Shown here one piece after another: positions 10,625 to 15,692 of a DNA stretch of 64,000 nt. Position numbers and translations under genes: made by a program. This stretch comes from Chrysomallon squamiferum (lineage: Eukaryota; Animalia; Mollusca), in contig CM022675.1 of the NCBI GenBank assembly GCA_012295275.1, positions 4,960,001 through 5,024,000 on the forward strand, read 5' to 3'. The notes below the pieces were generated by a model that saw nothing but the letters and a program-made list of their open reading frames with translations, did no database searches and was not told the DNA's origin. The stretch's first letter is position 1. The number at the start of each line of letters is the position of its first letter.

Positions 10625-13600
10625 CTACTGACATTCTTTTCTATCATAATTTTCCAGAACAAAATAAAAATTTCCACTGCCTTTAGAAACGTTGTCGTTG
10701 TTGTCGGAATTGTCGTGGACGTTATCAGAGATTTCTGATTTCCTAGTAGGAATTTGATTGTTAGACGAGGCAGTATATCTACACAGACTGGGGTGTGGTA
10801 AATCGGAAGTAACGGTATCAGCGATGTCGTAGCGGTCGCTGTCAGGTTCGTTAAGATGGTTATACACTTCTTATGCTGTTGTTGATGTTGGAGGTTTCTT
10901 GTCCATCGTGTCGTAGTCTTCAGAATCAACGAGGTGGCTGTAGGCGTCAGATACAGTTGCAGTTGTTTTTTCTTTGTTTGTGCTGTCGTAGTCGCAGTCA
11001 TTCTCAACACCAAGCCTGTTGTAGACATCAGACGTTGTTGTTTTCTTTTTCTTATCACAGGCATCGTAATCAGAGTTGTCGTCCCCAGCAAGGTGGTTGT
11101 AGATGTTTGATTTATGAGTTGGTGTATTTGTTGTGTCTGTGCTGTCGTAGTCCCCGCTTGAGAAGTGTTTGTCCACTTCAGATGTTGTAGTAGCTGCCGT
11201 ATTGATATCCGCTGTGTCATAATCTCCATCGTTGTCGTCAGCAGCAGATCTGTTAAAGGGAACTGCTTTAACATCTGCGATGTCGTAGTCGTTATCATTT
11301 CTGTTTTCTGGAAGTGCTTTAACATCTGCGATGTCGTAGTCGTTATCATTTCTGTTTTCCATGTTGACAGAAAATCCGTTTGGGACGTTGCAGTAAACAC
11401 TGTGGTTTCCTTGTTTTTCTGATTCAAATTCATAATCTGTCGACGTCGATGTCGTTGTTACCTCATAACTCAGATTTGCGTGACCACGTTGTAAATGTTC
11501 AGCAGAGCTGATTTCATTGTTTCTTTTGTTAAAATTAATTCTTGATTCTGGTAACTTCTGAGTTTTAAAACAAAATCTATGTGTTCTGGAAAAGAAAAAA
11601 TATTCTTCATGAATGTACAAACAAACATACCTCCATACTTTATATACATACTTATGAACATACATAGATTTCAGTCGAATATTATTATTATTATTATTAT
11701 TATTATTAGTAGTAGTAGTAGTAGTAGTATCATTTTAACGAACAAACAAACGTACCGTTTAGTCCACAGTAGAATCACAACTGTGACAAACAACACTACT
11801 ACGACAGCAGCAACACTACCACCAGCTATTGCAACAAATTAAATAAATTAATTGAAATAAAAAAGTCATATTGCATCTCTCTCTCTCTCTCTCTCTCTCT
11901 CTCTCTCTCTCTCTCTCTCTCTCTCTCTCTCTCTCTCTCTCTGTCTCTCTCTCTCTCTCTCTCTCTCTCTGTCTCTCTCTCTCTCTCTCTCTCTCTATCT
12001 CTCTCTCTCTCTCTCTCTCTCTCTCTCTCTCTCTCTCTCTCTCTCTCTCTCTCTCTCTCTCTCTCTCTCTCTCTCTCTCTCTCTCTCTCTCTCTCTCTCT
12101 CTCTCTCTCTCTCTCTCTCTGTCTCTCTCTCTTTTCTGATTGTTTGTATAATGATATTTTTTATTTATTACTGAACCTATATAAAAAAAATAAAATAAAA
12201 AAAATGACATTTCAGTGAAATACTAAATTTTATCATCAGCTGGTATAAAAAATACTATTTGTTGTACTGTTATCACTGTTGCTGCTGCTGTTACTGCTAC
12301 TACCGCTACTACTACCACTACTTATTCGTTGTATTATTGGGTTTTTTATTTATTAATGAGTTACTAGAAAAAAATGCACATTTTTATCTCCAAAAAGTAT
12401 AAAAAGATACTACAAATACTACTACTGCTGCTGCAACTGCTACTACTGCAACTACTCTTCTATCACCAGCACTATCACGAATACGTATACTACTGCAACT
12501 ACTACTGCTGATACTGCTATTATTACTAATACAACTACAAATATTGCTATTACCACTGCTACTACTAGTATTACTAATGCTGTTACTACAGCTACTACTA
12601 CTACTGACAAGTACTGCTACTACTATTACCATTATACCACTTGAAAGTGAGTGAAAGAATAAATATAAAATATTCTGAACTTGTTTTACTTCAGTTTTTG
12701 CTGTCAGCTCTAATTTAAACTTTTGCAACTGGAGTATAAAAATGTTAAAAATGATCTGTAGTGATGACGTCACAGAGTACAGGGTGGACACCTTCCTCTG
12801 GTTTCTTCAAGCGATCTCTTACTATTTGTAAAGGGACAAAGTTGGCACCAATTTAATTTATTATAAATCACGCACCACTAAATAACATACCAACTTATTT
12901 GTATAAATGCTATTTATGACTTGTTATATAAAACAGCAACAAAAAAAAGAAAAAAAAAGAAAACAAAAAAAGAAGTATTCATATCGTCAAAAGTTCACTT
13001 TAACTCATTACCATTAATCCATCGCCATTCAACCTGTCTCCGAAGTCCAACCCGGTAATCATCTTCACTGTAGTCACGTGATAAAAGTGTTGTCAATGAC
13101 AACAGCGTCTCATTGGTTAGTTTGGACAGACTGCAATTAGCGTTAGAAGTGACCCAGTCTGTTTGTTCATTTGAATCTGATGTAATACATATACTGGATT
13201 CGCAGTTGTCTATCGATGATTGACTTAAGTCATTTCCTGAAATCAGAATAAAAATATACAAATAAACAACAACACAATCAAAACAGAAAGAACATATGTA
13301 GCAGCAACAACAACAAGAACAACCTAGTGTAACAATAAAAGAAGAAAAATAACAATAACAAATATTGATGATGATGATGATGATCAGAGAAGATAAACAA
13401 AAACAAGTGCAAGGAGAATAATAACGATAAGCATTGCAATTCGAATGATATTGATAAGATTAACAACATTTTATTTATGTTCTTGCTTCTTATTACCACA
13501 TAATAATTTATATTTAAATAGTTTACCTGCACAAACACTGTATGCTGTCTGTTTCTCACAGTTTTGAAATCCAAGTTTTAGCACATCGTCATCTTCGTCG

Positions 13601-15692
13601 TATTTGATGTAGCCGCAGTTCGAGTCGCCGTAGACTTTACGAATAATCCTCACTGAAGCCGGAAGATCTTTGTGACAAAAATGTGCAGAAATTAACCATT
13701 TGTTATGTAGAGATTGTTTATTTGCTTGTTTGTTTACTTTTTGATTTGTGCACTTCTCAGAAACATTACTAAAAAAATATACATGAACATTAGAATATTT
13801 ATAAACTGAGTTTTTAAAGGGAAGGAAACATCCAATATTTTATATTTAAACACAATTTATTAAATGAAGTTAACTATATTTTAAAAGATTATTAATATTA
13901 CTACTACTACTACTACTACTAAATCCAATTTAAAGTTTGTTTAGACTCTTACCAATCTTGTACACAGAAATAAAGTTTTCTCCACCACAGTATTCTGTGT
14001 AGCTTCCTGCACATCTGACACAGTCTTCTCTCTTACTTAGTCCACTGTCAGCAATTTTACAAAAACAACGTCTACCCTGAAAACAAAACAACTTTCTTGT
14101 TATTTGTTGTTATTTTTGCTGTTGTCGTTATTGCTATTATTATTATTATTTATATTATTATTGTTGTTGTTGTTGTCATCGTCGACGTTTCTCTTGTTAT
14201 TGTTCTTCTTCTTATTATTATTATTAGTAGTAGCAGTAGGACTAGTTGTTGTTGTTGTTGTTGTGTTATTGTCATTATTGTCGTTCACCTCGGTTAAGAA
14301 GAAGTAGAAAATGAGAAAGAATTAAAAAATAATGTTAAAATAATATAATATAAATAAATGAATAAACAAAAATAAATAAAACTAAATAAATAAATAAAAC
14401 AAAACAAAACAAAACAAAACAAAATAAATGACAAACTTACTTGTAAACCCACAGTATGAGAAGAAGCTCTACACTTGATGAAACAAGAGAATGCGCTGTT
14501 ATCTTGTAACGTGTACTCACTTGTAAGTTCAGTTGTATCTGTTTCTCCTTTGTGTTGAAATAACGGTTCATCTGTCTCTGAGAAAGTGACAACAATTTAA
14601 AACTGTATTTTGTTATTGACCTTAGATTTATAAACACGAAATGAAATCTGTAAATTATACCTACCAGTCCACATCCACGGTGTATACGTCTCAAAAGCTC
14701 CTACCCAATAGTCTGTGTAGGATTTCATCCGAGAATAAAGTTTGTTTACGTCTAAATCAGAATGATCAACAACGAGTCTGCCTCCTGCCTCCTCACAGCC
14801 AGAATACGCTGCCTCCCACCAAGTTTGTTTTTTATCCAGTGTAAAATATTCTTCTAACATTTCTTCTTGTTTTCTGTCAGACCACGGACCTGTGTTAATT
14901 TATTAACATTTATTTTAAATATTTATTTCGCTATATATTGTACTAATTTATAAAAAAAAAAAAAATTATATTATGGTGTGTTCTAGTCAAGTTATGTTAT
15001 ATTGTAGTATTAATATTACTATCTTATTGATTTAGTTACATTATATTATGTTATGTTTTTTTATATAACAAGTTATAATTAAGTTATGTTAAGCTATTTT
15101 ATGTAGTTTTTCGTTTATGATAAAGATTTTATTTTTAAAAATGTATAAAAACGTGCTAGTTTGTGTTTTTAGTAATTGTATCAAGACGTGTTATCTGAAG
15201 TGGAAACGTTCATCTGTTATTACGCTTTGCAGTTAGTTCATTGACATCACTTTCATAATTGTTGTTTGATGTTGTTATTGTTGTTGTTCTTGATGTTCCT
15301 ACTGATATTATTATTCTTGTTGTTTGTTCATGTTGCGTTGTTTTTGTTGTTATTTTTGTTCTTTTTATTATTATTAACTATGATACAAACATTTCAAGTT
15401 AGAAATCCATTAAACATTCATTAGACGCTATTTTAAAAGGGTCTGCTTCTGTACCTTAAAATATAATCACCATATACAAGAAATAATAATTCTAAAATCC
15501 CTTTTAATCTATAAATAAAACTTAAAATAAATCTTGCAATTCTAAGTTATGTCCCCTTGCCTTATACATATTTGAAAAGACTTGAAGTGTAACGTACAGT
15601 TAATTTAAATAAATAAAAAACTTACTTAGTCTTTCTGCACCTGTAACCTGATTGTAGATCATTAATATAATCACTGCTGTTACTAAATTCAT
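10625..15692 (-). CDS. Receptor copy 2 (most complete): SP - CTLD1[WSC] - CTLD2 N-half - TM - Tyr-rich acidic tail with a late nonsense codon
   Basis: Exons 15626-15692 (MNLVTAVIILMIYNQVTGAERL), 14665-14889 (TWWEAAYSGCEEAGGRL..YWVGAFETYTPWMWT), 14441-14577 and 13953-14076 (WSC), 13527-13667 (NCGYIK..GFQNCEKQTAYSVC), 13012-13236 (CTLD2 ..YRVGLRRQVEWRWING), 11756-11825 (TM GGSVAAVVVVLFVTVVILLWTKR), 10625-11585 (tail). Intron phases are all compatible. In-frame TAA at 10871-10873 (TCA in copy 3). CTLD2 C-half and stalk exons not found. Could be a pseudogene. Confidence 0.7.
11877..12132. repeat. Long (CT)n microsatellite (others at ~6653-6739, 7338-7426, 33169-33257, 34970-35068, 56521-56602; (TACA)n-type tracts at ~15990-16310 and 23570-24320)
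   Basis: Directly visible simple repeats; they produce most of the spurious ORFs in the track. Confidence 0.97.

Follow-up and report, generated by a model that had tools for sequence, protein, structure and literature searches.

A WSC-like cassette in an intron of a probable C-type lectin-like domain in a receptor family of the snail Chrysomallon squamiferum

Exon shuffling usually strings domains serially. Can a module also be placed within another domain? This question was raised by a gene in the window (the whole 64,000-nt stretch of DNA of the deep-sea vent snail Chrysomallon squamiferum that was analysed), in which two exons resembling a WSC domain followed the N-terminal half of a C-type lectin-like domain (CTLD1) and preceded a probable C-terminal half, the intron phases recording a module placed within another domain. 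The features of this gene, copy 2, were as follows (window positions):

15626..15692, minus strand: exon 1, signal peptide with a phase-1 donor; joined to exon 2 by RNA in three of four runs
14665..14889, minus strand: exon 2, CTLD1 N-half with one Cys in helix 1, WVGA and W-x-W-T; phase 1-1
14441..14577, minus strand: exon 3, first half of the WSC-like insert with C-x3-C and without the first WSC Cys; phase 1-0
13953..14076, minus strand: exon 4, second half of the WSC-like insert with C-x-C and C..CGG; phase 0-1
13527..13667, minus strand: exon 5, probable CTLD1 C-half with a short loop and C-x18-C-x8-C, without EPN/QPD/WND; phase 1-1
13012..13236, minus strand: exon 6, CTLD2 N-half; the WIGL Trp is Arg here and Trp in the RNA contigs
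11756..11825, minus strand: transmembrane exon; phase 1-2
10625..11585, minus strand: tail exon, acidic and Tyr-rich; cut by an in-frame stop at 10873-10871 to 237 aa, which contain five YxxPhi motifs

The exon set, the phases and the order of copy 2 were real, and exons 2-5 were all open reading frames with GT-AG borders. As the preliminary description had proposed, CTLD1 was cut after its WVGA..PWMWT motif by a phase-1 intron, and the two exons that followed formed a symmetric 1-1 cassette with a phase-0 intron inside. Neither a CTLD2 C-half exon nor a stalk exon was located downstream of exon 6 in copy 2. Related sequences were present elsewhere in the window:

5223..6012, minus strand: copy 1 exons 1-2, in a region 81-96% identical to copy 2
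1827..2787, minus strand: copy 1 WSC exons (2787-2651 and 2274-2145) and post-WSC exon (1961-1827), 58-66% identical to copy 2 in DNA
375..1618, minus strand: copy 1 CTLD2 N-half (1618-1415), C-half (1185-1057) and Thr/Ser stalk (579 to about 375)
21530..25025, minus strand: third copy, 3' part only, with a CTLD2 N-half remnant containing a stop, a frameshifted CTLD2 C-half, stalk, transmembrane segment and tail
7944..8554, minus strand: fourth remnant, a degenerate transmembrane segment and tail

Copy 1, which continued past the window edge, had been said to show the same layout. This was correct for the exon order and not for the integrity of the exons: its exon 2 (5337-5223) contained a stop and had a deletion of 109+1 nt, which removed the helix Cys, and its post-WSC exon had Tyr in place of the terminal Cys. 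All three window copies carried lesions, and the 5' part of the third was not found. In copies 1 and 2, the cassette was flanked on both sides by introns of the same phase (phase 1), as expected of a class 1-1 module, and its splicing was seen.

The splicing evidence came from RNA contigs of four runs in a single study (among them X2 record 13 and X4 record 21). These contigs were 90-99% alike to the window and were therefore derived from paralogs or alleles of the window copies. One contig of 733 nt joined exons 1, 2, 3 and 4, and another of 583 nt joined exons 4, 5 and 6; the joints across intron 2 and across intron 4 were each found in three of the four runs. Close paralogs spliced the CTLD N-half to the two WSC-like exons and these to exon 5, in that order. 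Skipping of a WSC exon was not seen among the eight joints listed, contigs of this kind being unable to show absence. A loose contig end from run X1, read by hand, had the stalk directly after exon 6.

Homologs were identified in three genes of Gigantopelta aegis (P0003, P0005 and P0020/P0041), with 29-55% identity per exon. Their proteins (XP_041372159.1, XP_041371958.1 and XP_041372371.1/XP_041372373.1) had the same order of a CTLD N-half, a six-Cys WSC-like insert and a three-Cys segment, followed in two of the three genes by CTLD2, a stalk, a transmembrane segment and a Tyr-rich tail. In contrast to the lesion-bearing window copies, they were known as uncharacterized database models, in which Pfam found a partial Lectin_C, a WSC below threshold or, as in P0041, neither. 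The full isoforms P0005 and P0041 possessed two N-halves and two C-halves; isoform P0020 was without the CTLD2 C-half, and therefore half domains do occur in this receptor family. Of the protein searches, only a full HMMER scan with exon 2 reached the family; it returned 40 matches, namely seven family members and 33 canonical CTLD proteins. Word-index protein searches with exon 2 and with a tail exon gave nothing new, and the one with a family profile gave two matches, both known, and missed P0003, so it was uninformative on the range of the family. A metagenome locus (L001) considered as a relative was a chance match. Similar proteins may be present in bivalves.

The insert, 84-89 residues long, was classed as WSC-like rather than as a full WSC domain on the basis of its cysteines and profile scores. 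It shared the C-x3-C, C-x-C and C..CGG pattern of WSC (PF01822; Wsc1 7PZ2, Kremen1), which would allow three of the four disulfides, but it lacked the first disulfide pair, remained below the Pfam cut-off and was nested instead of serial. Six core Cys were present in all five inserts, compared with eight in WSC, and copy 2 and P0003 had one additional unconserved Cys; the CGG motif was kept in four inserts and was CGS in P0041. Pfam WSC matched exon 4 below the gathering score in both copies (E 0.16 and 0.004). The best score was 19.4 bits (P0005, E 0.0012), followed by 15.7 for P0020, so that the gathering score of 27.8 was not reached, and there was no Pfam WSC row for P0003 or P0041. The match to yeast Wsc1 (7PZ2) was weak (E 0.048). 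In Wsc1, C27 and C86 form one bond, and strands 1 and 5 of WSC are adjacent (PMC9024836, PMC5014086). According to our own mapping, the two WSC Cys absent from the insert would be this C27-C86 pair.

Exon 2 was placed as a CTLD N-half. It aligned with positions 3-57 of the 107 in Pfam Lectin_C (PF00059; E 9e-4) at 20.4 bits against a cut-off of 22.6, which P0003 exceeded; its top PDB match was CD69 (E 3e-4), and the Atlas assigned it to a Lectin_C cluster (0.94). Both the helix-1 Cys and the WIGL-type core motif were present. The N-half contained exactly one Cys and kept its core tryptophans in ten of ten sequences.

It was more difficult to decide whether exon 5 completed this domain, as had been claimed. 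Pfam, PDB phmmer, the Atlas and a local HMM did not recognise it as CTLD, and weak matches to an LDL lectin (Pfam E 0.042; PDB E 0.11) or PCNA were judged noise. The claim was supported by the Cys spacing and a whole-lobe score. Three Cys were present in four of the five post-insert segments (copy 1 lacked the terminal one), and their spacing of 17-18 + 7-8, which arose in about 1% of shuffles, compared with 16-17 + 7 in CTLD2 and 12-20 + 7-8 in 74 parsed canonical domains. With a whole-lobe (glocal) model, made after the local test had failed and from 106 of 166 domains chosen by Cys pattern, the segments scored +6.5, +3.1, +3.0 and +4.7 bits (the last being exon 5 of copy 2) and -12.7 in copy 1. 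The four positive scores were matched by 0-1 of 300 shuffles and by 1-9 of 300 Cys-fixed shuffles; for exon 5 this was one of 300 shuffles. Among 213 Cys-rich non-CTLD windows one reached 3.0 and none reached 4.7. The controls gave -15 to -28 for eight WSC halves and +13.9, +15.7 and -3.4 for CTLD2 C-halves; canonical lobes scored far above the post-insert segments, at 25-45 bits in-sample.

Removal of the WSC exons had been predicted to raise the CTLD HMM score sharply, and this prediction failed. Using a full-domain HMM built from 166 CTLDs among the HMMER-scan matches (not the Pfam model), the score changed from 42.1 to 42.5 bits, and 364 of 500 shuffled C-halves did equally well or better. 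The homologs gained +1.9, -0.8 and +4.0 and the true CTLD2 halves +10.3, +12.6 and +2.2; the alignment of P0003 without its WSC ran from position 4 to 117 of the 122-position model and kept the four Cys in register. Profile-profile tests, including hhalign, were at noise (11 of 150 shuffles; 41 and 26 of 200). The local C-lobe HMM had little power, since exon 5 was matched by 40 of 1000 shuffles and the true CTLD2 halves by 2, 27 and 303. AlphaFold2 modelled P0003 from a 15-row alignment with a mean pLDDT of 40, residues 196-239 being best predicted and the N-half unformed in this low-confidence model; exon 2 alone reached 52. The same model was read for the double-loop fold of the CTLD and the PAN/Apple fold of the WSC at this low confidence, and Foldseek and VIA-align searches gave nothing informative. 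Because the WSC-deletion test failed and folding remained at pLDDT 40, we can only infer that the halves co-fold. Judging from its cysteines and whole-lobe score, exon 5 was probably a divergent CTLD C-half.

It had also been suggested that the WSC replaced the ligand-binding loop. Exon 5 and its homologs had 15-19 residues before the first Cys, compared with 13-18 in the uninserted CTLD2 C-half, and on this count the WSC was inserted, and replacement of the loop was not supported. EPN or QPD together with WND are marks of a calcium-dependent C-type carbohydrate-recognition domain (PMC7618208). They were absent from all five post-insert segments and all three CTLD2 C-halves, which places neither domain in that class. 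Since the uninserted CTLD2 also lacked them, loss of the calcium site was independent of the insert. CTLD2 scored as a contiguous domain (25-35 bits), and its intron was not at the same position as that of CTLD1, contrary to the preliminary description: the cut came after W-x-W-x in CTLD1 and after W-x-W-x-x in CTLD2, one codon apart.

That a symmetric 1-1 WSC-like cassette is nested within an intron of the CTLD was supported by the splicing, the three Gigantopelta genes, the Cys counts and the whole-lobe profile test. We consider it likely that these spliced genes encode a family of type I membrane receptors with a WSC-like module in the intron after W-x-W, where the flanking exons likely form one CTLD without a calcium site that likely displays the WSC as a binding head. 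The CTLD may reasonably be regarded as a putative scaffold presenting the WSC. The symmetric phase 1-1 cassette may have arrived in an existing intron, in a lineage of CTLDs where the second domain, which has no insert, lacked a calcium site as well. Two features would make the insert tolerable: adjacency of the first and last WSC strands keeps its two ends close to each other, and its entry point is where the variable long loop begins. A disulfide between the helix Cys and the terminal Cys would span the 84-89 residues of the insert, and the inner pair would close inside exon 5. The proposed long bond would not be invariant, since Tyr replaced the terminal Cys in copy 1 and, by hand translation, in one copy 1-type RNA contig. 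On its Thr/Ser stalk, the head may recognise a glycan or protein of microbes independently of calcium, and the repeated YxxPhi motifs of the tail might drive uptake or tyrosine signalling. Each of four tails had 5-10 such motifs; an ITAM-like motif was present in one tail and ITIM-like motifs in all four, but at unconserved positions.

Even if the nesting is real, the WSC could be a structural or dimerising add-on, with the ligand bound on CTLD surfaces or CTLD2 as in calcium-independent CTLD receptors. Dectin-1 binds glucan without a calcium site (PMC7618208), and the variation sits in the CTLD parts, since the RNA contigs differed from the window by about 2% in exons 3-4 and by 8-12% in exons 5-6. 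However, the differences in exons 5-6 showed no excess of amino-acid replacements, 13 of the 28 being synonymous, the WSC exons were as diverged as the other exons between copies 1 and 2, and WSC itself is known to bind protein, as in Kremen1-DKK1 (PMC5014086), and glucan in fungi (PMC9252488). We regard this explanation as unlikely. Among the 40 RNA differences listed (75 in all), 17 were synonymous against about 21% expected, and no sign of diversifying selection was seen among them.

A still less probable explanation is that there is no nesting, in which case exon 5 would extend a WSC/PAN module at its C-terminus or form a separate small domain, and exon 2 would be an orphan half-domain. 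The missing family or PDB match of exon 5 to CTLD, the negative local HMM and hhalign results, the unformed N-half beside the better predicted residues 196-239, and the half-CTLD2 isoform P0020 would all agree with it. On the other hand, it would leave a lone Cys in exon 2 in ten of ten sequences and an odd number, three, in exon 5 in four of five, and it fits neither the whole-lobe scores above decoys nor the conserved tryptophans of the N-half. The halves might also pair differently, with exon 5 and the exon 6 N-half forming a circularly permuted CTLD, or with halves swapped between chains. Permutation is possible because CTLD termini lie together (PMC7618208), and two N-halves with one C-half were seen in P0020, in the copy 2 model and at the loose end from run X1. 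We consider this pairing highly improbable, given that P0005 and P0041 had two halves of each kind and that CTLD2 was contiguous, which leaves exon 5 for exon 2.

The preferred reading, a WSC-like head displayed by a split CTLD, has relatives among known receptors. In CD69, dectin-1 and group V receptors the CTLD is uninterrupted, and most of these receptors are type II. The snail receptor shared with these calcium-independent receptors a short long-loop without EPN/WND, and CD69 was the best PDB match of its N-half; it differed in being type I with two CTLDs, the first split by about 87 residues. CTLD and WSC also occur together in bivalve proteins that are uncharacterized and have been proposed to act in immunity (PMC10140915); section 2.4 of that paper does not describe nesting, and its text supplement does not mention WSC. 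A literature search, in which subscription journals were mostly uncovered, found no report of WSC nested in CTLD. This domain-in-domain variant is real and apparently undescribed. Should the fold be confirmed, the long loop of the CTLD would be a tolerant socket in animals, and the locus would expose a receptor family overlooked or wrongly counted by lectin censuses that rely on Pfam, as with P0041. Receptors for microbe recognition are an open question in this snail lineage (PMC7895826).

The family probably turns over by tandem duplication and decay. A broader reading, which we hold only tentatively and think rather unlikely, is that in a large molluscan family the CTLD serves as a scaffold on which a captured WSC head is displayed, and that recombination still takes place in the insert intron. 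There, paralogs would exchange the WSC-plus-downstream cassettes attached to a promoter, signal peptide and N-half that they have in common. If true, microbes or symbionts could be recognised by a combinatorial repertoire that arises in this way. Two observations formed the basis of this reading. Up to and including exon 2, copies 1 and 2 were 81-96% identical, and beyond it 58-67%; in addition, 769 contigs of one run not labelled as RNA mapped to copy 1 with the greatest depth on exons.

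Gene models of the tandem receptor copies were drawn from the window sequence by coordinates.

Receptor features (window positions)
15692-15626, minus strand, copy 2 signal exon (GT-AG model)
14889-14665, minus strand, copy 2 exon 2, phase 1-1
14577-14441, minus strand, copy 2 exon 3, phase 1-0
14076-13953, minus strand, copy 2 exon 4, phase 0-1
13667-13527, minus strand, copy 2 exon 5, phase 1-1
13236-13012, minus strand, copy 2 exon 6, phase 1-1
11825-11756, minus strand, copy 2 TM exon
11585-10625, minus strand, copy 2 tail exon
25025-21530, minus strand, third copy, 5'-truncated and carrying lesions
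8554-7944, minus strand, TM-plus-tail remnant

GT-AG was present at every junction of this coordinate-built copy 2 model. Profile and structure-database matches identified exon 2 as the N-half of the first CTLD (CTLD1). By sequence, exons 3-4 are WSC-like: they had six core Cys, sub-threshold Pfam WSC matches and a weak match to yeast Wsc1, and a CGG motif was found in four of the five inserts. The symmetric 1-1 cassette with an internal phase-0 intron, as originally described, was borne out by the phases of exons 3 (1-0) and 4 (0-1), their GT-AG borders and splicing in paralog RNA. By our mapping onto Wsc1 and Kremen1, as presented in parts of PMC9024836 and PMC5014086, the two WSC Cys absent from the insert would be the partners of one disulfide. 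The same parts place strands 1 and 5 next to each other, so the ends of the module should lie together, as is required of an insert.

RNA contigs from four runs of one study were aligned to window 12700-15900. Exons 1-2-3-4 were joined in one 733-nt contig (13 differences over 573 nt) and exons 4-5-6 in one 583-nt contig. The intron 2 joint was found in three of the four runs, the intron 4 joint likewise in three, and skipping of the WSC exons in none of the eight joints listed for this region. Since the contigs were 90-99% alike, they demonstrated splicing for the family and not expression of the window locus. Among the 40 listed RNA-contig differences (of 75 in total), 17 were synonymous, against about 21% expected. 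In run X5, 769 contigs, which is not a copy number, fell on copy 1 with depth far greater over exons than over the long intron, and this pile-up suggests many paralogs.

Exon 5 quite probably co-folds with exon 2 into one CTLD. The N-half had exactly one Cys in all ten sequences, and the post-insert segment had three in four of five, spaced 17-18 and 7-8, compared with 16-17 and 7 in the uninserted second domain (CTLD2) and 12-20 and 7-8 in canonical domains (74 parsed). Moreover, the Gigantopelta aegis homolog P0003 (XP_041372159.1), with its insert deleted, covered positions 4-117 of a full-domain HMM built from 166 canonical CTLDs, with its Cys in register. The sharp score rise that the preliminary description expected on WSC removal did not appear: exon 2 alone scored 42.1 bits and 42.5 when joined to exon 5, with 364 of 500 shuffled C-halves as good. 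On the 166-CTLD HMM, WSC-deleted homologs gained +1.9, -0.8 and +4.0 bits, versus +10.3, +12.6 and +2.2 for true CTLD2 halves. Pfam, PDB, Atlas and hhalign searches did not recognise exon 5 as a CTLD. A whole C-lobe model with forced alignment (106 of the 166 domains) was devised after the local HMM test had failed. It gave post-insert segments +4.7 (copy 2), +6.5, +3.1 and +3.0, scores matched by 0-1 of 300 shuffles and, when the Cys were kept in place, by 1-9 of 300; the copy 1 segment scored -12.7. Eight WSC halves scored -15 to -28, and CTLD2 C-halves +13.9, +15.7 and -3.4. Ten proteins supplied 213 Cys-rich windows outside any CTLD, of which one reached 3.0 and none reached 4.7. AlphaFold2, with an alignment of only 15 rows, gave pLDDT 40, and fold searches were uninformative.

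The ligand-binding loop, once thought to have been replaced by WSC, was not lost, as exon 5 and its homologs kept 15-19 residues ahead of their first Cys, versus 13-18 in CTLD2. The calcium and sugar site is defined by EPN/QPD and WND in the portion of PMC7618208 consulted; these motifs occurred in none of five post-insert segments and none of three CTLD2 C-halves. Because they were missing from CTLD2 as well, their loss was independent of the insert. The CTLD1 intron lay one codon upstream of that in CTLD2 in a W-x-W alignment, and not at the same position as had been proposed. In fish CTLD genes, an intron is known downstream of WIGL (excerpts of PMC514892), which fits an old CTLD intron and does not prove homology.

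These genes most likely encode a type I receptor in which the first CTLD would serve as a calcium-free scaffold displaying the WSC-like head. WSC domains can bind protein, as in Kremen1-DKK1, and those of fungi are described as glucan-binding in passages of PMC9252488. The four tails examined were acidic and carried 5-10 YxxPhi motifs apiece, and no ITAM was conserved among them; such tails would suit uptake or adaptor docking. Within the copy 2 tail, a 17-residue unit with one Tyr-Asp motif was duplicated exactly (window 11260-11360).

Exon 2 as the query of a full HMMER scan yielded 40 matches, seven of them family members: three RefSeq models, named uncharacterized, from the peltospirid gastropod Gigantopelta aegis and four unnamed ENA exon 2 fragments. 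Word-index protein searches were insensitive, and the family's range as given here is that of the HMMER matches. The Gigantopelta homologs aligned in register with the window exons. P0005 (XP_041371958.1) and P0041 (XP_041372373.1) had a signal, CTLD N-half, WSC-like module, three-Cys segment, complete CTLD2, Thr/Ser stalk, TM and Tyr-rich tail, and P0003 ended shortly beyond the three-Cys segment. P0020 (XP_041372371.1) was the P0041 isoform without the CTLD2 C-half; this exon was also missing from copy 2 (window 13012), and one RNA contig apparently skips it, which leaves these receptors with half a CTLD2.

Bivalve proteins with CTLD plus WSC are mentioned in PMC10140915 (section 2.4 and one supplement), where, unlike in the snail family, nesting is not mentioned. 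A term search of PMC12355970 found no mention of WSC, and the literature searched, including the available parts of PMC7895826, PMC2440524, PMC4581086 and bioRxiv 10.1101/2023.01.19.524809, held no description of such nesting. CTLD-containing receptors were already known, and a WSC-like module nested within a CTLD is apparently new.

The window receptor genes are a decaying tandem cluster. In copy 2, a stop at 10873-10871 interrupted the tail, and neither a CTLD2 C-half exon nor a stalk exon was found in the window sequence. Copy 1 ran from 6012 to the window start. The layout it was said to share with copy 2 stood in exon order, with CTLD2 C-half and stalk exons in addition, but its exon 2 had lost 109+1 nt and contained a stop, and Tyr replaced the last Cys of exon 5, as also in one copy 1-type RNA contig (hand translation). 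Copy 1 CTLD2 (window 1057-1618) had lost its helix Cys and both inner Cys and kept the terminal Cys, the one gone from CTLD1.

Exon 1 was 96% identical between copies 1 and 2, the two ends of intron 1 were 81-84% and the end of exon 2 was 89% identical, but identity fell to 58-67% in exons 3-6, the DNA match ending about 8 nt inside intron 2. In this one pair of copies, the drop points to recombination or conversion with an endpoint at the intron preceding the insert. The near-identical part of this mosaic began ahead of exon 1, reached the first bases of intron 2 and spanned window 5215-6485 (copy 1) and 14657-16169 (copy 2).

Copy 1 intron 2 carried a 2-kb insertion with broken frames (window about 2970-5100), presumably resembling a hAT-type transposase (ALQLDESTD motif). 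Pfam gave no match to its frames, a 40-nt tandem repeat lay within it at 4448-4730, and X5 contigs bypassed most of it. Directly next to the 5' truncation of the third copy lay a satellite block (window 25040-26016) whose plus strand held 24 TTAGGG hexamers. At about 26400-26565, plus strand, an unrelated gene may have a hydrophobic first exon, which would end in a GTGAGT donor-like site. Two long minisatellite arrays (window 18594-19380 and 26961-32965) and a 200-N gap (window 35457-35656) were also present.
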